Origin: an uncultured Verrucomicrobiae bacterium
Lineage (GTDB): Bacteria > Verrucomicrobiota > Verrucomicrobiia > Limisphaerales > Palsa-1400
DNA length: 64,000 bases
Direction: 5' to 3'
Assembly (NCBI GenBank): GCA_963825315.1
Contig: CAWGST010000003.1
Location: forward strand, 7,743 to 71,742
The translations under genes and the position numbers were made by a program. Shown here in pieces: positions 38,158-59,749 of the stretch (the stretch's first letter is position 1; each line of letters starts with the position of its first letter). The notes below the pieces were generated by a model. That model had not been told where the DNA came from and searched no databases. It saw nothing but the letters and a program-made list of their open reading frames with translations.

Positions 38158-38300
38158 TGGTCAAAAATAGCCAGAAAGGTCATATTGATAGATAGAGGTC
38201 TGGAAAATCGGCAACACGGCAACAAGCCTTATTTTACAAGGGTTTCGTTGCCCTTTTCCGCCGGCAACACAGCGGCAACGGCTGGCAACATGTTGCCTCT
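38158..38300 (-). repeat. Remnant of a mobile-element terminus: 3' end of a DUF3631-type gene plus 93 bp downstream (inverted copy of 56680-56819)
   Basis: 38158-38250 matches the reverse complement of 56727-56819 at 90/93. 38251-38300 retains a degraded C-terminal coding sequence (PAVAAVLPAEKGNETLVK* versus QPVAGVLQAEKLNETLVK*). Confidence 0.85.
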
Positions 38301-47194: not shown

Positions 47195-48151
47195 ATGTCG
47201 CAGCCCGAAGAAAAGGCGGGGCCAGCCGCCGATGCCCGGATTTTGGAGTTTCTTCGCCATCTGGCCGCCGATCAGGACGCCTCCATTTACACGCAAAGAA
47301 ACTATCGCCAGGCCCTGCTTGAATTCTTTGCCTGGTTCAAAAAACAGCGCGGAACCGTCCCGGACTGGTCCGTCTTGCGCCGGGACGACTTTCGCGATTT
47401 TCTCCGCTTTCTCGGCCGCGGCCAATTGAGCCGCGCCGCCATTCAACTCCGCTTTTCCGCCCTGCGTTCCTTTTACAAATTTTTGATTCGCAACGGCGCG
47501 GCCGGCGTTTCGCCGATCAGGAATCTTTCGCTGCCCCAACCGCAAAAACGCCTGCCCCTATTCCTGACGGTGGAACAATTGCAGGACCTGCTCGAAGCGC
47601 CCGGCGTGGAATTGCGCCGCGACGCGGAGAAAGGCGAAGCGGACGCCAGCCTTTACTTTCGCGACGCCGCCATTTTGGAGGTCATTTATTCCTGCGGCTT
47701 GCGCGTCAGCGAGCTTTGCCGGCTTTGCGCCGCTGATATTGACTGGTCCCAACAAGTGGTGTGCGTGCGCGGCAAGGGAAAAAAGGAACGGCTCGTTCCC
47801 ATTGGCGCGCCCGCCCTGGAAGCGATCCGCGCCTACTGGAAACATCGAACCGCCCTGGTCCAGGGCGGCCAGGCGGTTTTTTCCGCGCGCCCGAACAAAA
47901 CAACTCCGCTCTCGCCGCGCACGGTGCAAATGCGCCTGAAGAAGTATCTTTGCTCAGCCGGCCTGGACCCCAACATGACGCCGCACAAATTGCGCCACAG
48001 TTTCGCCACCCACCTGTTGGACGCCGGCGCGGATTTGCGCAGCGTCCAGGAACTGCTGGGCCACGCCCATTTGGTCACGACCCAGGTCTATACCCATATC
48101 ACGACCGAGCGATTGAAGCGCGCCTACGACCAGGCGCACCCGCGCGCCTGA
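47195..48151 (+). CDS. xerC: Tyrosine recombinase, XerC/XerD-like
   Basis: N-terminal SAM-like domain (YTQRNYRQALLEFFAWF). Catalytic region with GLRVSELCRL, KGKKERLVPIG, HKLRHSFATHLLDAGADLRSVQELLGHAHLVTTQVYTHI. Confidence 0.85.
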   Translation: MSQPEEKAGPAADARILEFLRHLAADQDASIYTQRNYRQALLEFFAWFKKQRGTVPDWSVLRRDDFRDFLRFLGRGQLSRAAIQLRFSALRSFYKFLIRNGAAGVSPIRNLSLPQPQKRLPLFLTVEQLQDLLEAPGVELRRDAEKGEADASLYFRDAAILEVIYSCGLRVSELCRLCAADIDWSQQVVCVRGKGKKERLVPIGAPALEAIRAYWKHRTALVQGGQAVFSARPNKTTPLSPRTVQMRLKKYLCSAGLDPNMTPHKLRHSFATHLLDAGADLRSVQELLGHAHLVTTQVYTHITTERLKRAYDQAHPRA

Positions 48152-51840: not shown

Positions 51841-53477
51841 AAAATCCTCTCCGCATCGTGATCGTCGGGGGTGTGGCCGGAGGCGCTTCCGCCGCCGCCA
51901 AAGCGCGCCGGGTTGATGAAAATGCCGACATCCAGATCTTCGAACGCGGCCCCTACATCTCCTTCGCCAACTGCGGCCTGCCGTATTTCATCGCCGGCGA
52001 AATTGACGACCGCGCCAAATTGATCGTCATGACACCGGAAAAATTCTGGGAACGCTCGCGCGTTCGCGCCCACGTCAACCACGAAGCGCTTTCGATCAAC
52101 CGCGCCGCGAAAACCATTTGTGTCAGGGAACCGGATGGCCGGCAGCGCAACGTGCCTTACGACAAACTCGTCCTGAGCCAGGGCGCGAAGGCCATCGTGC
52201 CGCCCGTTCCCGGCGCGAACCTGCCGCATGTTTTCACCCTGCGCGACATCCCGGACATGGACCGCATTGCCGCCTTCCTGAACGAACGGCAACCGCGTCA
52301 CGCGGTCGTCATCGGCGGCGGATTTATCGGACTGGAAATGGCGGAGGCGTTTCACCACCGCGGCCTTCACGTTACCATCGTTGAGCGCGATCCCCACATT
52401 CTGCCGTTGTTGGACCGCGACATGGCTGCTCACCTGCAGAATCAAATCCGCCGCGACGATTTTGAGTTCAAAACCGGCGCCGCCGCAACGCAGTTCACCG
52501 GCGGCGGGGTGGAATTCGCCGATGGCAGCCGGTTGCCGGCAGATCTGGTTTTGATGAGCGTGGGTGTGAAAGCGGAAGTGGAACTGGCGCGGGCGGCGGG
52601 ACTGGAGATAGGCGAAACCGGCGGGGTGAAAACCAACGGCCGCCTGGAATCGTCCGACCCGAACATTTACGCCGTGGGCGACGCGGCGGAAACGATGCAC
52701 GCCCTGACTGGCGCGCGGGCGCGCATTGCGCTGGCCGGCCCGGCCAACCGCCAGGGACGCATCGCCGGCGCCAACGCGGCGGGCGCGCGCCTGATCTATC
52801 CCGGGGCGCTGGGCACCTCCATCGTGCGGGTTCTGAACATGACCGCCGGCTTCACCGGCCTCAACAGCGCCCAGGCGCTGAAGGCGGGCTTCACCTTCTT
52901 CACCAGCCTCACACGCGATGACAGTCACGCGCATTATTATCCGGGCGCAAAACCAGTGCTGATTAAAATCGTCGCGGAGGAAGGCACAGGCCGGCTGCTC
53001 GGCGCGCAGGTCCTGGGTGAATGCGGTGTGGACAAACGCGTGGATGTTTTGGCGACAGCCATCACCGGGAAAATGAGCGTGTTCGATCTGGAAAATCTTG
53101 ACCTGGCCTACTCTCCGCCGTTCGGTTCGGCAAATGATCCCATTAACACGGCGGGATTCGTGGCCGGTCATATCGCGCGGGGCAACCTTGCCACCGTTGC
53201 GCCGGAAACCTGGAAACCCGATGGCGACTACCTGCTGGACGTTCGCGACCCCGGCGAACTGGCGGAATTCGGCAAGCTCAACAACGCTGTGAACATCCCT
53301 TTGGGCCAGTTGCGCGACCGTCTTGGGGAATTGCCGCGCGACCGCCGCATCGTGACTTACTGCCAGAAAGGGCAGCGCGGTTATCTGGCCGCGTGCGCCC
53401 TCCACGGGCGCGGGTTCGAGGATGTGGCCAATTTGCGCGGCGGATTCCTTCAATCGAAACTACTCGGCCAAATTTAG
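51837..53477 (+). CDS. CoA-disulfide reductase / NADH-oxidase-family flavoprotein with C-terminal rhodanese domain
   Basis: IVIVGGVAGGASAAAKARR (FAD GxGxxG)...SFANCGLPY (redox Cys)...VVIGGGFIGLEMAE (NAD site)...YAVGD... The C-terminal part is LLDVRDPGELAEFG...YCQKGQRG. Confidence 0.85.
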   Translation: MKNPLRIVIVGGVAGGASAAAKARRVDENADIQIFERGPYISFANCGLPYFIAGEIDDRAKLIVMTPEKFWERSRVRAHVNHEALSINRAAKTICVREPDGRQRNVPYDKLVLSQGAKAIVPPVPGANLPHVFTLRDIPDMDRIAAFLNERQPRHAVVIGGGFIGLEMAEAFHHRGLHVTIVERDPHILPLLDRDMAAHLQNQIRRDDFEFKTGAAATQFTGGGVEFADGSRLPADLVLMSVGVKAEVELARAAGLEIGETGGVKTNGRLESSDPNIYAVGDAAETMHALTGARARIALAGPANRQGRIAGANAAGARLIYPGALGTSIVRVLNMTAGFTGLNSAQALKAGFTFFTSLTRDDSHAHYYPGAKPVLIKIVAEEGTGRLLGAQVLGECGVDKRVDVLATAITGKMSVFDLENLDLAYSPPFGSANDPINTAGFVAGHIARGNLATVAPETWKPDGDYLLDVRDPGELAEFGKLNNAVNIPLGQLRDRLGELPRDRRIVTYCQKGQRGYLAACALHGRGFEDVANLRGGFLQSKLLGQI

Positions 53478-53529
53478 ACAAACCAAACTATTGGTGCATT
53501 GAAGTTCGTTGCAAAATGCTGATGCGCGA

Positions 53530-53569
53530 GGAGCGCGGGCGTCTCGCCCGCATCCGTCGGCGTCCCGCC
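53530..53569. repeat. REP-like 40-nt motif (reverse-oriented copy of 18284-18323)
   Basis: GGAGCGCGGGCGTCTCGCCCGCATCCGTCGGCGTCCCGCC. It sits at the junction between the high-GC core and the low-GC island. Confidence 0.75.
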
Positions 53570-53768
53570 GACGGAATTATTAAAATTACTTCCATGACAC
53601 CACCCAATTGTCCGTTTCATAAACTTTTCGCCATCGGCACAAAGCTGCAAAACAGCAATTTGTGGCAATAGTATGCTTTGACCCGTCAGACGGTGTGACC
53701 CGCCAGACAGATGCGCATCTGATTAAGGCGTTGATTTTGCTCCCTGGCGGCGACATCTTCGGCGGCAA

Positions 53769-54788
53769 ATGAAACCGGAAAATAAAATGGTGGGTTGGAA
53801 ACAATATCCCGGTCAAAAAGTCCAACTAACCGAAATATCAAAATATATCGTAGAAAGACTTGGCAAGGAACTGTGCAACTGCTCGCACGAATTTTTTAAG
53901 TGCAACACCTCAGGCAAAAGAAGGACAGAAATTATTAAGTGCGCTTCGGCTCACATTGGTGACGAGCTGCATTACAAAGTATATGCAAATAAACTTTCGG
54001 GCTGCTTGCCACCGCCAATTGATGGAGGGCAATGGAAATCCAGAGAATGGCTTTATGACCTTCATTGGTACACTGAAGTGGACGACATCAAGGATTTGGG
54101 CGGGTTCATAGAGATGCTGAGGGTGCCCAACGATTCCGATAAATTATCCCCCTTTTTGTGGAACCAGTTGCTAGACCCGGAAGAGCGAAAAACGCTGGAA
54201 CATTATCAGTCGTCGCCGTCAAGTTCAACGAAAGCTCGAAAAGTTGTTTACGAACTGCTCAAAAAGATAATTGACGGACAATCGATTTACGAACCGACTC
54301 GGTTCAATGGCAAATCGCTTGAAGATATTTCGATTGAAGCGAGCATACTTTTGAACAAATTCAAAAAGAACCTCAAAAAGCGGCGTAAGAGGAACAGTCG
54401 GGCAGTCTCCTGCGAAAAACTCCTGAAGCGCCACAACCGCCTGCTTCTCCAATACACTTATCCAGAAACGGTATTGTCGAGGAACCACGAGTATATGCCG
54501 ACACGTTTACCGTTAGTCGCTGAATTCGAGTGGCGCCCGAAAAGGGAGGAGGACAGCATTGTGCCTTACAGCGGTTTCAAATTTGACTTTCAAAAGCTTT
54601 TGGTCGCTAACGCCGACTTGAGACTAATGGTTTTCAAAATAAAAAAGGGCGAAAAACTTTCGGAGCTTGGCAATTACTTTGACAATGCAATTAAGAGCTA
54701 CGAACATTTAGAGCCGGGATCGCGATTCCTTTTTATCGCATTTGCCGAAGGAGAAGACAGATTTTTCTATGCAGAAAAACACAAATGA
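53769..54788 (+). CDS. Hypothetical 339-aa protein in low-GC island; possible split PD-(D/E)xK-like nuclease core (speculative)
   Basis: A long clean ORF in AT-rich DNA. It has a Cys/His cluster (CNCSHEFFKCN...CASAH), hydrophobic-Asp (EWLYDLHWY) and hydrophobic-E-x-E/K (LPLVAEFEWRPK) strands separated by a basic helical insert (KKNLKKRRKRNSR), and DFQKLL. No family recognised. Confidence 0.6.
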   Translation: MKPENKMVGWKQYPGQKVQLTEISKYIVERLGKELCNCSHEFFKCNTSGKRRTEIIKCASAHIGDELHYKVYANKLSGCLPPPIDGGQWKSREWLYDLHWYTEVDDIKDLGGFIEMLRVPNDSDKLSPFLWNQLLDPEERKTLEHYQSSPSSSTKARKVVYELLKKIIDGQSIYEPTRFNGKSLEDISIEASILLNKFKKNLKKRRKRNSRAVSCEKLLKRHNRLLLQYTYPETVLSRNHEYMPTRLPLVAEFEWRPKREEDSIVPYSGFKFDFQKLLVANADLRLMVFKIKKGEKLSELGNYFDNAIKSYEHLEPGSRFLFIAFAEGEDRFFYAEKHK

Positions 54789-54900
54789 GAGAAAAGAACA
54801 AACCTGTCGGCTATCGGCTCGAGTCCGAGAAGTCACAGGAGCCATTCTGCGTTGCACTTTTTCCTCGCGCTGTCCCCAATGAACTCGATTCAAGGAGCCG

Positions 54901-54924
54901 TCATAGGGTCATAGGTCATAGGGG
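54901..54924. repeat. Iteron-like (TCATAGG)x3 tandem repeat
   Basis: TCATAGGG TCATAGG TCATAGGGG, followed by AT-rich sequence, in the 490-bp intergenic region upstream of the DUF3631 gene. Confidence 0.8.
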
Positions 54925-55057
54925 TCAAACCGTACTATTGACTTGTTGATGTTCTTTTGCCGGCGCTAAGGTCCGCCTCGGCGCGCCCCGAAATGCTGGC
55001 ACATATTAACGCCGACACGGATAAAGCCTGCTTCGTCTGCGTCCATCTGCGTGTTTC

Positions 55058-55123
55058 GCGGACTTGTCGCGCCACAGCTTGGCGGCGGCGGACTTGTCGC
55101 GCCGTAGCCCTGCGAAGGCGGAT
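55058..55123. repeat. Two tandem copies of the GCGGACTTGTCGCGCC... dispersed repeat
   Basis: Copies at 55058-55088 and 55088-55123. The second is 32/36 identical to 1232-1267. Confidence 0.8.
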
Positions 55124-55220
55124 ATTTCGCGGTTAAAACTCATAAGCTATTGCAGTTCAAGCCTTTAAGCCACTTTTGCCTCAAAAGTGAAGGTTTTTTA
55201 AAAATTCTTCCAAATATCTG

Positions 55221-55249
55221 TTGACGAAATGATGTATTAACGATAATCT
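55221..55249 (+). promoter_or_regulatory. Putative sigma70-type promoter for the DUF3631 gene
   Basis: TTGACG (55221-55226), a 17-nt spacer, then TAATCT (55244-55249), 33 nt upstream of the ATG. Pattern match only. Confidence 0.3.
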
Positions 55250-55281
55250 TCAGCTAATGAACAATTGAACAATTAAAATAT

Positions 55282-56748
55282 ATGAGAAAGACACCAAAAC
55301 TATTCACCGAAGAGACAGAAACCGAGTGGCCCGGAGAGGTCAACCTGGCAGAACTGCTGAACGAAATCAGGAACACAATCCGAACGCACGTTGTAGTGAA
55401 CGCGAAAGCGGCCATTGCGCTTGCGGTATGGGTGGTCCACACCTACGTTTTCGAGTTGCGCGATGCCGTGGCTTACGTCGCCATTGAATCACCGGAAAAA
55501 AGGTGCGGGAAAACGACGCTTCTTTCAGTCCTGGCGGGGCTGGCATCAAAACCATTGATTGCATCGAATATTACGGCAGGGGCGCTGTTCCGCGCCATTG
55601 ATGAAGCGTCACCAACGCTGTTGATTGACGAGGCGGATACTTTCCTGGCGGGCAACGGGACCATGCGCGGCATCCTCAATTGCGGCAACACCTGGAGAAC
55701 CGCTTTTGTAGTGCGGTTGCGCAAAAAAGGCGAGGGAGCGCGGGAGACGGAAGTTGCCGGGGAGACCATGAAAAAAGAAGGTGAATTGGAAAAACCGCCA
55801 GCCGAAGGGAGCCTTGTTTCATACGGCTGTTACTGCCCGAAAGTCGTGGCCATGATAGGGCAGGTTCCCGAAACGCTGGCCGACCGAAGCATCGTGGTAA
55901 AGATGAGCCGCAAGTTAGTTGAAGAAACATGCGTTCCTCTCAAAGATTTCCATCCGGGGCAAATCAGGGCCAAATGCAAAAAGTTTGCCAGGCAGAACGA
56001 ACAAATCGTCAAAGACGCGCCGCAAGAGCGCCTGGAGGGGCTGAACGACCGGGCCGCGGACACCTATGAACCGCTCGCTGTCATCGCCCGCATGGCCGGG
56101 GAAAATTGGCTCCAGGAATTGACGCAAGCGGCAGCCTGGCTCACCTCGTCACAGAACGTTGACAGCAAAGGCCCCACGCTGCTTCTGGATGTGCTGGAAA
56201 TCCTGCTGACCGCCCCCGGCATGAAGATGTTCAGTCGAGACCTGGCCGGGGCGCTCAGAGGGGAGCGCGGATTCGTTCCGACCCAGCATTTTGCTGAAAA
56301 AAAGGTCACGGAACAAGTTTTGGCAACGACCCTTCGCAGATATGGCGCGCGCCCTTCAACCATGCGAATCGGGCGCGAAGTCAACAAGGGCTACTCGGCC
56401 CAGGACTTTCGCGAGGCGCTGCAACACTACGTGCCAAGGGCCGATATTGACGCACGGCTCGAAGAGATCAAAAAAACCGATGCCATACGGCAGGAACTGG
56501 CAGATGAACTTGGCAAGGAGGTCGAAGTACAAGAAGCCGGTCGTCTGCTGAAATTGGCGAAATTGAAGTTGGCAAGGCTCGAAGCGATGAAAGGTTCAAG
56601 CCAGGCATTGCAGGAACCGTTGCCGGAGGGGTTTAACGACATCACAGAGCAAATCAAGGCCGAAATAGTCGATTTGCAAAAGAAAGTGTTGCAGCCAGTT
56701 GCAGGGGTGTTGCAGGCCGAAAAGCTCAACGAAACCCTTGTAAAATAA
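55282..56748 (+). CDS. DUF3631-like P-loop NTPase typical of integrative/plasmid replication modules
   Basis: WPGEVNLAELLNEIRNTIRTHVVVNAKAAIALAVWVVHTY...ESPEKRCGKTTLL (Walker A)...PTLLIDEADTFL (Walker B)...GILNCGN...PKVVAMIGQVPETLADRSIVVKM matches my recollection of DUF3631 proteins. Confidence 0.75.
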   Translation: MRKTPKLFTEETETEWPGEVNLAELLNEIRNTIRTHVVVNAKAAIALAVWVVHTYVFELRDAVAYVAIESPEKRCGKTTLLSVLAGLASKPLIASNITAGALFRAIDEASPTLLIDEADTFLAGNGTMRGILNCGNTWRTAFVVRLRKKGEGARETEVAGETMKKEGELEKPPAEGSLVSYGCYCPKVVAMIGQVPETLADRSIVVKMSRKLVEETCVPLKDFHPGQIRAKCKKFARQNEQIVKDAPQERLEGLNDRAADTYEPLAVIARMAGENWLQELTQAAAWLTSSQNVDSKGPTLLLDVLEILLTAPGMKMFSRDLAGALRGERGFVPTQHFAEKKVTEQVLATTLRRYGARPSTMRIGREVNKGYSAQDFREALQHYVPRADIDARLEEIKKTDAIRQELADELGKEVEVQEAGRLLKLAKLKLARLEAMKGSSQALQEPLPEGFNDITEQIKAEIVDLQKKVLQPVAGVLQAEKLNETLVK

Positions 56749-56819
56749 GGCTTGTTGCCGTGTTGCCGATTTTCCGGACCTCTATCTATCAGTATGACCT
56801 TTCTGGCGATTTTTGACCA
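56680..56819 (+). repeat. Mobile-element terminus (3' end of the DUF3631 gene plus 71 nt downstream); inverted partner of 38158-38300
   Basis: See 38158-38300. Similarity stops abruptly at ...ATTTTTGACCA (56819). Confidence 0.85.
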
Positions 56820-56940
56820 CCTATCATCCATATCCCGGTTCTGGCGCATTTTACAGGGCTTTCTTTCAGAAACGGCCTTGTTTGCCAATTTTGAGCCGGA
56901 TTCAATCGCAACTCCTCGGCCAGACGTAAGCGGAACACAA

Positions 56941-57034
56941 CGGTCAACTGAGGGCGATAATCGAAACGGCTTCGTCTGCCTCATCCCGACCGACGCCCGT
57001 GGCACGCGGATCAAGGGTTGGCATTCCGTCAACT
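56941..57034. repeat. 94-bp direct repeat DR-a: orphan copy of the 3' end of the CBM48-like gene
   Basis: About 87/94 identical to 59656-59749. On the minus strand it still reads VDGMPTLDPRATGVGRDEADEAVSIIALS* but lacks the upstream part of the gene. Confidence 0.85.
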
Positions 57035-57114
57035 CCGCTCTAATCTCGTCGGCCTGCATTTTCACACGCCGACGCAACGGAGCCTTTAACGCAAAGGCCT
57101 TAACTCCCCGCCCC

Positions 57115-59484
57115 TCACCGCAAATCCAGCCGCCGAAATAGACAGACTTTCAGCCAATCCAGGCAACTCAGATAAATTGCTCCGATGGCTGCGACACCGA
57201 GCAGGAGCAACGGGCTGATGGCCGGCATCAATATGCCTCCCAGCACGAATGCCGCCATGACGCCCAGCCCCAAAATCGAGCTGCCGACCAGGAAACGGCT
57301 CGGCTGTGATTTCCAGAAGTGCCCGCGTTCGCGCAGCAGATAGACGCCCGCCTGGGAACTCAAAATCAACGCGGCAAACGTCAGCGTCTGCAAATGCGGC
57401 ATGTCCAGAATGAGCGCATAATGGCCCCACAGGAAAACGCCGAGCGAGAACACCAGTTTGCACGCGGCAAGCACCGTGGCGCACAGCAGAATTCCCCGTG
57501 TGTTCCAACGGTTGGGATGAGTCGAGAATCCCATCTGGTCGGTTGAAATGGACATGGTGAGAAAATCATTGAGAAACAGGATGAGCACCATGAGCATGGG
57601 CGTCAGCGGTTTGTGGGCGGTCACTAGAAACCCGATCACCAACAGCGCCATCAGTTCAATTTTTTTGATGAGCATGTTGAGCGTGTAGGTGATGATGCGT
57701 TGAAAAACACGCCGGCTGGTTTCAATGGCCGGCACGACACCGCTTAATCCCGGGGAAGTCAACACCATCGCCGCGGCGGCTTTGGCGACGTCCGTGGCGT
57801 TGGCCACAGCCACCCCCGCTTCCGCCTGGCGCAACGCCGGAGCATCGTTGACGCCGTCGCCGCTCATGCCGACCACCTCGCCACGCCGTTGAAACGCCCG
57901 CACCAGCTTGAACTTGTCCTCGGGAAACACGCCGGCAAACACGTTATAGTCCGTTGCGTCGCCTTGAAGATCACCGTGCAACTTCTCAGGCGGGCATACT
58001 TGGGGCGGGATTCCAACCTGCCCGGCCACATTCCGCGCGGTAAGCGCGTTGTCGCCCGTCACCATCACGATCCGAACACCGGCGTTGCGAATGGAACTGA
58101 CGACCGCCTTGGAATCGCCGCGCACCGCGTCTTCAAGACCTATCAAACCAACCAACTGCAATCGCGCGTCTTCTCCTGCTCCCACGGCCAGCACGCGCTG
58201 CCCGCGCCCGATGATGGCTTCGGCTTGCGGCTGCCAGAGGGATTCGGCCACCCCGGCCATTTTTGCGATGACGGCGGGCGCCCCTTTGACAAAGCGTTCC
58301 TGGCGGCCGCTGTTATCGCGATACAGGGCCTCGGACCGCTTCGTTGCCGGATCGAATGGTTTAAATTCAATCCGCTCCATCCCGCCGTCGTGCCAGCCGC
58401 GGTCGGTGGCGGCTTTGATGATCGCGCCATCAACAGTATCCAGTCCGGCCGGATCGCTGGCCAGAGCCGATGCGCGCAGAAGATCACCTTCTGCAAAACC
58501 CGGCACCGGCCAAATCGCATTCACCGTGGCCTCGTTCCGCGTAAGGGTTCCGGTTTTGTCGCTGCACAATACCGTCATTGAAGCAATATCGTGCAGGGCG
58601 CTGAGCCGCGTGATCAGCACGCCGTGTTTGGACAATTCCACCGAACCCAGGGCGGCTGCGAGCGTAAAGGTGGCGGGCAAAGCGACTGGAATCGAAGCGA
58701 GCAGAATGGCGAGCAGCAGGGGCAAAATATATTCCAGGGACATGCCTTGCAGATGGGCGTAGCCCGTCACAATCACCACCATCGCGGCGTTCACCACAAA
58801 CAAGTTTCTGACCACCCCCACGATTTCGTGTTCCTGTCGATTGGCCGACCCTGCGGTGCGGACCAGTTCGGCGGTCTTGCCAAAAAAGGTGCGCGCACCC
58901 GTGGCAGTGACTTCGCCCGTCGCTTCGCCGCCACGGATCATCGAACCCGCATAAGCCACTTTGCCCGGTTCGACCGAAACCGCAGCCGACTCACCCGTGA
59001 GGGCGGATTGATCCGCAAGCAGCGATCCCTCCTCCACCCTCACATCGGCGGGCACGATGCTGCCCTGGCGCAAATGGATGACGTCTCCTGGAACTACGCC
59101 CTCCGCCGGCAATGTGGTCCACGCGGCGTCCCGGCGAACCCGCGCCTGTACGTGCAACTGCTGCCGCAGAAGCGTCAATGCCTTCTGCGCGCGGCCTTCC
59201 TGTAGGAAACTCAGTATGGCGTTTAAAACGAGCAACCCGCCAATCACCGCAGCCTCGACACCCTCGCCTAGAAAGAATTGGATAATGATCGTGGCCTCCA
59301 GCAGCCAGGGAATGGGAGCCCAAAAGCGTTTGATGAACTCCTTGAATGGATGGGGCCTTTCTTCGATGACAGCATTCGGACCGAACTGTTTCAGCCGCGC
59401 CTGGGCCTCAGCAGAAGTCAGACCCCGCCCATTCTCGGAGCGGGGATAAGAACTTTGAACCGGCGTTTTCACATTTGCTTTCAT
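57115..59484 (-). CDS. P-type cation-translocating ATPase (type III, H+/Mg2+-ATPase-like)
   Basis: GLTSAEAQARLKQFGPNAV...LCSDKTGTLT (phosphorylation site)...MVTGDN...GMSGDGVNDAPALRQAEAGVAV, with 8-10 TM helices. I prefer the ATG at 59484 over the TTG at 59529. Confidence 0.88.
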   Translation of the reverse strand: MKANVKTPVQSSYPRSENGRGLTSAEAQARLKQFGPNAVIEERPHPFKEFIKRFWAPIPWLLEATIIIQFFLGEGVEAAVIGGLLVLNAILSFLQEGRAQKALTLLRQQLHVQARVRRDAAWTTLPAEGVVPGDVIHLRQGSIVPADVRVEEGSLLADQSALTGESAAVSVEPGKVAYAGSMIRGGEATGEVTATGARTFFGKTAELVRTAGSANRQEHEIVGVVRNLFVVNAAMVVIVTGYAHLQGMSLEYILPLLLAILLASIPVALPATFTLAAALGSVELSKHGVLITRLSALHDIASMTVLCSDKTGTLTRNEATVNAIWPVPGFAEGDLLRASALASDPAGLDTVDGAIIKAATDRGWHDGGMERIEFKPFDPATKRSEALYRDNSGRQERFVKGAPAVIAKMAGVAESLWQPQAEAIIGRGQRVLAVGAGEDARLQLVGLIGLEDAVRGDSKAVVSSIRNAGVRIVMVTGDNALTARNVAGQVGIPPQVCPPEKLHGDLQGDATDYNVFAGVFPEDKFKLVRAFQRRGEVVGMSGDGVNDAPALRQAEAGVAVANATDVAKAAAAMVLTSPGLSGVVPAIETSRRVFQRIITYTLNMLIKKIELMALLVIGFLVTAHKPLTPMLMVLILFLNDFLTMSISTDQMGFSTHPNRWNTRGILLCATVLAACKLVFSLGVFLWGHYALILDMPHLQTLTFAALILSSQAGVYLLRERGHFWKSQPSRFLVGSSILGLGVMAAFVLGGILMPAISPLLLLGVAAIGAIYLSCLDWLKVCLFRRLDLR

Positions 59485-59655: not shown

Positions 59656-59749
59656 CGTTCAACTGACGGCTATAATCGAAACGGCTTCGTCTGCCTCATC
59701 CCGCCCGACTCCCGTGGAACGCGGATCAAGGGTTGGCGTTCCGTCAACT
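59656..59749. repeat. 94-bp direct repeat DR-b (functional 3' end of the CBM48-like gene)
   Basis: Partner of 56941-57034. Together the two copies bracket the P-type ATPase gene. Confidence 0.85.

Follow-up and report, generated by a model that had tools for sequence, protein, structure and literature searches.

This study revealed that the low-GC region downstream of a CoA-disulfide reductase (CoADR) gene in an uncultured Verrucomicrobiae bacterium of the order Limisphaerales consists of two independent modules with separate histories. One of them carries a gene, ORF-A, which we tentatively regard as most likely encoding a stand-alone metal-dependent phosphodiesterase, probably a DNA nuclease, with a PD-(D/E)xK-like architecture. 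The region lies in a stretch of 64,000 nucleotides (nt) of contig CAWGST010000003.1 (assembly GCA_963825315.1, positions 7,743 to 71,742), hereafter referred to as the window. It contains two genes, both on the + strand: the open reading frame (ORF) ORF-A, which encodes 339 amino acids (aa), and ORF-B, which encodes a RepAM/DUF3631 P-loop protein of 488 aa. Both are located where an initial annotation, made from the sequence alone, had placed them (Table 1). ORF-A was found to be a foreign, low-GC, single-gene insertion, and its product belongs to a family whose members mostly lack the helical domain that is inserted in ORF-A.

The initial annotation had described the ORF-A protein as an orphan, which is no longer tenable. 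A word-indexed search returned 59 relatives, and an exhaustive HMMER scan of 1.84 billion cluster representatives returned 249 relatives at E<=1e-3, including 99 at E<=1e-10. By name, the sources of the family are Bacteroidota (Chryseobacterium, Cytophagaceae, Mucilaginibacter and Prevotella) and Verrucomicrobiota (Limisphaerales and subdivision 3). No match to the family was found among the INPHARED phages, and one distant match was found among the PLSDB plasmids. Only five or six relatives are full-length (340-365 aa, with 45-73% identity to ORF-A), most family members being approximately 200 aa long. About 50 homologues of this shorter size carry the EWLYDLHWY, LPLVVECEW and DFQKLL blocks without residues 104-243 of ORF-A. 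They align to residues 1-103 and 244-339, with conservation in the family being highest in the three blocks, which bears out the earlier proposal of a core split by an insert. The family N-terminus, M-x-x-W-x-x-Y, favours the ATG at position 53787, resulting in a protein of 333 aa, in agreement with the public gene call.

With regard to conservation, we compared 148 divergent family members with a mutual identity of at most 50%. The polar residues conserved at 85-98% are T47, E91, D95, E116, E118, K135, D137, Q139, K140 and N145 in the numbering of the homologue P0014, which correspond to T53, E93, D97, E252, E254, K271, D273, Q275, K276 and N281 in ORF-A, where all are intact. Even a plasmid homologue with 28% identity retains the D, the E..E and the K. 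These observations bear on the possibility that ORF-A is a non-catalytic protein of mobile elements, with a binding, regulatory or anti-defence role in which the conserved charges would serve binding. Such a role would be in line with the presence of homologues near relaxases and near RadC and ArdC, which are anti-restriction-type genes, and with the fact that no catalytic family was matched. Nevertheless, six of the charged residues are 97-98% conserved in the set of 148 members, a pattern typical of active sites and not of binding surfaces, and we consider a non-catalytic role quite improbable. The Cys/His cluster near residue 30, which had also been highlighted as a feature of the protein, varies even in the closest relatives of ORF-A, and a zinc site at this position was rejected because the cluster is not conserved. 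The ratio of non-synonymous to synonymous substitution rates (dN/dS) of ORF-A against its homologues is 0.40-0.42. When the two parts are compared separately with two homologues, the core gives 0.34-0.39 and the insert 0.46-0.49, which indicates moderate constraint on both.

The AlphaFold2 model of ORF-A, obtained with the family alignment, has a mean predicted local distance difference test score (pLDDT) of 85.5 and a predicted template modelling score (pTM) of 0.75, with low confidence only in the basic linker of the insert. The model of P0014, a 216-aa Chryseobacterium homologue, reached a pLDDT of 93.6 and a pTM of 0.89. In the P0014 model, DSSP assigned two N-terminal helices, a helix at 45-59, strands at 69-72, 96-101 and 108-118, a helix at 132-142, a strand at 148-155, a helix at 158-174, and strands at 183-190 and 195-202. 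The ORF-A model shows the same order of elements, with the insert between strands 2 and 3. The alpha-beta-beta-beta-alpha-beta order of the PD-(D/E)xK superfamily is thus present in both models, although this likeness concerns the order of the elements only. In P0014, D95 lies just ahead of strand 2, E116 and E118 are on strand 3 (D-X20-ExE), and D137 and K140 are on the next helix. At the position of the strand-3 (D/E)-x-K motif, a glutamate replaces the lysine (D97 and E252-x-E254 in ORF-A), and the conserved K276 is found on the following helix. A glutamate in the final catalytic position, which in most restriction enzymes is occupied by a lysine, is also found in BamHI (E77, D94, E111, E113) and OkrAI (E71, D86, E99, E101) (PMC3025578). 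From the models and the conserved residues, we infer that E93, D97, E252 and E254 could bind Mg2+. In this proposal, D97 would open one strand of a beta-hairpin whose other strand carries E252-x-E254, and the site would be completed by D273 and K276 on the following helix. The E/D/ExE arrangement would be the one seen in BamHI and OkrAI.

Several results weigh against the assignment of ORF-A as a nuclease. The canonical third-strand lysine is absent from the family. Foldseek searches against 350,542 PDB chains gave no significant match (E<=0.001), the best E-values being 0.18 for ORF-A and 0.05 for the short model, and a search of ORF-A against BFVD gave none either (best E 0.016, probability 0.08). 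The sub-threshold lists do include nuclease folds, namely PaqCI, the BspD6I small subunit, EcoT38I, HincII, SPARDA and the tRNA-intron endonuclease, but their TM-scores did not exceed 0.34 and were equalled by those of unrelated alpha/beta folds such as formamidase, SurE and the central domain of acetyl-CoA carboxylase. Pfam, NCBIfam, PHROGs and PADLOC gave nothing usable for ORF-A, and Pfam (E<=5), PHROGs and PADLOC revealed no recurring family among 49 family members. A PDB sequence-profile search at E<=10 returned 0 matches. Finally, hhalign gave a probability of 0.1 both against the BglII-like endonuclease of the same genome and against a 21-sequence Mrr_cat alignment from related genomes. 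The split of a conserved core proposed in the initial annotation stands, but neither the AlphaFold and Foldseek check nor the profile searches provided a significant match to a nuclease.

Given that highly confident models were obtained without any significant structural neighbour, the family could instead consist of enzymes whose alpha/beta fold is new or unrecognised and bears an acidic metal site. They would act not on nucleic-acid backbones but, for example, on a nucleotide, a second messenger or a phosphoester, in which case the likeness to restriction enzymes would be convergent. The 5'-nucleotidase SurE and nitrilase-type amidases are found at the same sub-threshold level as the nucleases, and no nuclease profile was matched. 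In contrast, the position and spacing of the Asp and ExE residues on a hairpin, followed by a helix and a strand, are a hallmark of PD-(D/E)xK enzymes, and the neighbourhoods of the family are rich in DNA-targeting systems. We consider a different fold rather unlikely, although it is the most probable of the alternatives, and tentatively retain the PD-(D/E)xK-like phosphodiesterase.

The insert of ORF-A is located in the hairpin loop that joins the D97 strand to the strand with E252 and E254, and its helices span residues 104-224 in the 333-aa numbering. As the acidic residues are at the end of the hairpin opposite to the insert, the core can probably survive the insertion. In the mechanism that we envisage, this helical domain of about 140 aa, placed at the tip of the predicted catalytic hairpin, may provide a binding or regulatory function. 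Copies of the module with 33-45% identity are present in other settings. Some make up proteins of approximately 175 aa by themselves, some follow a sigma-70 region 4, a zinc ribbon or a signal peptide, and some are embedded in multihaem cytochromes, in BlaR1-type M56 peptidases that have HEAT repeats and in TPR proteins. Proteins of 810-1226 aa contain 3 to 6 or more copies in tandem. Large proteins with the module in arrays (2 to 6 or more copies) or in fusions include P0125, P0150, P0191 and P0128. No Pfam model covers the module, and a region-restricted word search with the insert returned only the close sub-family. A second insertion site was observed in the ORF-A family after approximately residue 20 (P0008 and P0009), and P0006 has both insertions, which points to at least two independent insertions of the helical module within one small family. 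The idea that the insert is a repeated mobile DNA element of the source genome was rejected, since there is one other weak copy in this genome and, of 80 further genomes from the order, only 2 contained the insert.

At the DNA level, the ORF-A unit shows 78-82% nucleotide identity to integrative/conjugative element loci (L005-L012), and its upstream piece is also present in L076. This stretch of about 45 nt (53731-53775), upstream of the start, is 82% conserved with L005:9159-9208 and L076:8946-8996, both of which are Verrucomicrobial, and it is shared although one of the partners is a short family member with only approximately 53% protein identity. The stretch, which was not seen in the Bacteroidota loci, may be a promoter or operator that moves together with ORF-A.

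The genomic contexts of the homologues agree with the mobile-element and defence neighbourhood that the initial annotation had anticipated. One homologue lies directly after a TrwC relaxase gene, with RadC, a PIN/Phd pair and an integrase nearby (P0003, L005), another is accompanied by RadC, two integrases, ArdC, SIR2, T5orf172 and MmeI (P0005, L009), and a third by TrwC, TIR and SIR2 (P0006, L016). P0047 (L014) starts 94 nt after a Type ISP enzyme gene, with GmrSD, an AAA_15 ATPase, a DUF3987 primase and an integrase in the vicinity, and P0042 (L075) starts 13 nt after a gene for an MmeI-like enzyme, near GmrSD and RadC. A PIN gene is found near P0017 (L076). In four IMG/VR contigs, the homologue is located between an integrase and a large terminase, as in prophages, and a distant homologue on the Allochromatium plasmid pALVIN02 has a type I restriction-modification (R-M) system and VapC nearby. 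This company, together with that of the DUF3631 cassettes described below, suggests a role in defence or in conflicts between mobile elements.

Other aspects of these contexts speak against a defence nuclease. Several Bacteroidota homologues are alone between housekeeping genes, as observed for P0014 and P0059. Clustering of the neighbours of 37 family loci by blastp revealed no conserved partner, methylase or immunity gene, so a free nuclease would need another way of sparing its host. For a cognate DNA methyltransferase, there is no other ORF in 53478-55281 and no conserved neighbour at the 37 loci. The same is true of a toxin-antitoxin partner, as no plausible small ORF was found on either side of ORF-A. 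Neither ORF-A nor ORF-B matched any model of PADLOC-DB 2.0 (5027 models), and 2 of 49 family members gave isolated, chance-level matches. The ORF-A family thus behaves as solitary cargo.

ORF-A could also be a selfish or element-maintenance nuclease that does not act in defence, for instance a free-standing homing-type endonuclease that enters intergenic sites as a one-gene unit, or a helper of the transfer or recombination of its element. The mobile unit comprises just the gene and approximately 40 nt upstream, it has no conserved partner, lone insertions occur between housekeeping genes, and in one element the homologue directly follows the relaxase gene. Moreover, the family is patchily distributed across phyla, with identities in the C-terminal part that reach 60-66%. 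On the other hand, no association with a target site, intron or intein was seen, and many copies lie within defence islands and not at allelic empty sites. We regard this explanation as unlikely.

The sharp fall in G+C content (GC) that had been reported after the CoADR gene was confirmed: in 400-nt windows, the GC is 0.59-0.67 over the CoADR gene and 0.445-0.472 across 53600-54999. Gene by gene, it is 0.438 for ORF-A, 0.551 for ORF-B, 0.629 for CoADR and 0.598 for the P-type ATPase further downstream, in a genome of 6 contigs and 5.46 Mb with a GC of 0.567-0.578. The stretch had been interpreted as a remnant island. The presence of a foreign low-GC gene stands, but the island is not a single unit. 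We propose that ORF-A arrived as a 1.07-kb low-GC single-gene unit and would have landed at a place where gene order breaks among relatives, beside an independently mobile RepAM-type cassette.

ORF-A and the DUF3631 protein could be thought to form a two-gene system of an ATPase and a nuclease, as they are encoded by adjacent genes on the same strand that are the sole genes of the low-GC stretch. However, the 493 nt that separate the two genes contain a terminator-like hairpin and a conserved promoter region distinct from that of ORF-A, and their GC differs (0.44 versus 0.55). A 93% identical copy of the cassette has an R-M pair in place of ORF-A, no neighbour of the ORF-A locus recurs at any of the 37 other family loci, and none of them has a DUF3631 neighbour. 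The gene contexts largely refute such a system, which we consider very improbable.

The assignment of ORF-B as a DUF3631 ATPase with Walker motifs, of the replication type found in integrative elements, was well founded. It matches Pfam PF12307 over residues 211-383 (E 3.7e-20, 73.3 bits for a cut-off of 24). DUF3631 corresponds to RepAM, which initiates the replication of pMEA300-type actinomycete integrative conjugative elements (AICEs) (PMC3218068). The genome contains four DUF3631 loci: ORF-B, a copy on contig C2 (95% protein identity), a copy on C1 (57%) and one 3' fragment. The dN/dS between ORF-B and its C2 paralogue is 0.17, which indicates purifying selection on both copies, and the term remnant may therefore understate the activity of the cassette. 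None of the eight PF00589 matches of the genome is near any of the four loci, whose neighbours are cargo or housekeeping genes.

The leader of the cassette contains a hairpin (55171-55189) and a TTGACG-N17-GATAAT sequence (55221-55249). The DUF3631 leaders of the window (55137-55281), L039:9960-10092 and L040:9342-9475 have a hairpin, a T-run and TTGACG-N17-TATAAT or GATAAT in common, and the leader is approximately 83-86% conserved even before the paralogue with only 57% protein identity. Pieces of the leader without the gene are found elsewhere in the genome, at C1:798837, C5:830016 and C5:142748. Judging from its sequence, this non-coding leader is a candidate origin, attachment or control region.

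The cargo next to DUF3631 genes varies. The C2 copy has a low-GC type II R-M pair directly upstream, and the C1 fragment is found with an AAA_21 ATPase and RloB (Table 1). In relatives, the neighbours are ParE/ParD (L018, at the same site past CoADR), PIN_3 (L086), an HTH protein (L091) and, in several others, short low-GC ORFs without a Pfam match. As the L018 DUF3631 gene is closer to the C1 paralogue than to ORF-B, different cassette lineages occupy the same site.

At the left side of the locus, the REP-like (repetitive extragenic palindrome) motif that had been noted at the junction is indeed repeated: its 23-mer core is present 8 times in the genome, with an identity of up to 96% for the 48-nt copies. 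The hairpin block is an insertion, since it is missing from the metagenome contig L018, which is otherwise collinear. L018 and a same-genus genome (G006, L078) are 92% identical to the window up to approximately 53685-53692, and beyond this point all three differ. Downstream of CoADR, gene order breaks at once in 6 of 6 related genomes and contigs (L078, L079, L080, L081, L082 and L018), where CoADR is followed by TPR/Clp_N, tetrapyrrole methylase, AAA_21, radical SAM/BATS, TPR, and ParDE with DUF3631. In L080, a same-genus genome, the AAA_21 gene directly past CoADR is similar to the C1 AAA_21 gene beside RloB. The junction after CoADR is thus a general rearrangement point.

As previously noted, there is no integrase in the island. 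The closest tyrosine recombinase gene, a 321-aa Xer-like gene at 47567-48109, is syntenic in a related contig along with the M23 peptidase, rhodanese and CoADR genes. A single element extending from the tRNA-Met and recombinase to the DUF3631 block was also considered and rejected, as relatives retain the recombinase, M23 peptidase, rhodanese and CoADR genes in synteny and with 88-95% conservation. Neither an Rfam search of 53300-57300 nor a sigma-70 promoter scan at its thresholds gave a match.

Among the repeats, the 16-mer core of the 30-nt spacer repeats has 7 genomic occurrences. The dispersed repeat at the end of ORF-B has 45 genomic blastn matches, most with a sharp start at 56687. The copy at 38158-38290 is one ordinary member of this repeat family, and neither an inversion nor a paired scar has to be invoked for it. 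Two 94-nt direct repeats (56941-57034 and 59656-59749), which are 92.6% identical, flank the P-type ATPase gene, the right copy being the 3' end of a CBM48-like gene, and point to another, separate insertion event on the right-hand side of the DUF3631 cassette.

Table 1. Coordinates of the features of the ORF-A and ORF-B locus and of related DUF3631 loci. Positions are those of the window unless a contig is given.
Feature	Coordinates	Strand	Basis or remark
REP-like block, two GC-rich hairpins at 53529-53577	53494..53598		Just after CoADR stop TAG 53475-53477
Native/foreign breakpoint with two 13-nt direct repeats, TGACCCGYCAGAC, at 53679 and 53696	53679..53708		L018/G006 comparison
ORF-A single-gene unit, GC 0.44: 40-nt upstream piece, gene and ~15 nt downstream	53731..54804	+	DNA shared with other loci
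ORF-A, 339 aa; candidate catalytic residues E93, D97, E252, E254, D273, K276	53769..54788	+	ORF list, alignment, model
Inserted helical domain, residues 104-243, including basic low-confidence linker	54078..54497	+	Alignment, model
Spacer of normal GC (0.58) with TCATAGG run and two 30-nt direct repeats (55058-55117)	54805..55122		GC, repeat search
DUF3631 cassette, 1.64 kb: leader of ~160 nt and gene	55123..56766	+	93% identical copy at C2:324959-326601
ORF-B, 488 aa, RepAM/DUF3631 P-loop protein; Walker A GKTT at residue 76, Walker B DEAD at residue 116	55282..56748	+	Pfam, ORF list
Dispersed genome repeat overlapping the last 20 codons of ORF-B and extending past its stop	56687..56820		blastn
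Orphan copy of the 3' end of a CBM48-like gene	56941..57034		Partner 59656-59749 (C3:67398-67491)
Cargo of the C2 DUF3631 copy, this genome: N6_N4 methylase (320 aa) and BglII-like endonuclease (198 aa)	C2:322940-324467 (L039:7939-9467)	-	Low-GC R-M pair directly upstream
Cargo of the C1 fragment (296-nt 3' piece of DUF3631 gene): AAA_21 ATPase and RloB	C1:1721832-1723927 (L041:9832-11927)		

A broader interpretation would combine three elements: the ORF-A family as novel, structurally unmatched solo anti-phage or anti-plasmid nucleases, the DUF3631 cassettes of these Verrucomicrobiota as integrase-less mini-elements, made of the conserved leader and a RepAM gene, that make or occupy swap hot spots for defence and addiction modules of one or two genes, and the insert as a portable sensor or binding module. 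That all three would hold jointly appears doubtful. If the family consists of nucleases, it would represent a widespread unannotated branch of restriction-endonuclease-like enzymes, with at least 249 clusters at 50% identity in two phyla, prophages and a plasmid. The family would have an unusual E/D/ExE and D-x-x-K site and no relative of solved structure, and would supply a new candidate of the single-gene type for defence or for conflicts between mobile elements. Most unannotated genes of defence islands nevertheless stay of modest interest until a phenotype is shown. For protein engineers, ORF-A may offer a natural example of a predicted catalytic hairpin that tolerates the insertion of a whole domain at its tip. 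The DUF3631 cassettes, for their part, appear to mark small variable slots that gather R-M, toxin-antitoxin and Abi-type genes without an integrase, which could provide a handle for cargo discovery in Verrucomicrobiota.

Compared with known systems, ORF-B resembles RepAM by its PF12307 match, its Walker A and B motifs, its multiple copies and its mobility in the genome. In contrast to pMEA300-type AICEs, its cassette has no integrase, FtsK-type transfer gene or Prim-Pol nearby, is a single-gene unit of 1.6 kb, and occurs in Verrucomicrobiota and not in Actinomycetales. Unlike the catalogued genes of defence islands, ORF-A matches none of the PADLOC models, but it resembles moron and defence-island genes in being solitary, with its own upstream region, a low GC and variable neighbours, beside integrases and restriction systems. 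With regard to restriction enzymes, neither sequence or profile comparisons nor Foldseek detected a similarity between the ORF-A family and BamHI, BglII, Mrr or any solved nuclease, and the family differs from the BamHI motif by an invariant D-x-x-K on the following helix, by the lack of a cognate methylase and, in ORF-A, by a 140-aa domain in the hairpin. Nevertheless, it resembles PD-(D/E)xK enzymes, especially BamHI and OkrAI, in its predicted succession of a helix, three strands, a helix and a strand, in the Asp predicted to lie before strand 2 with the ExE on strand 3, 20 residues further on, in the additional conserved Glu upstream, in its size (approximately 200 aa, compared with 194 aa for OkrAI) and in its restriction-system surroundings.

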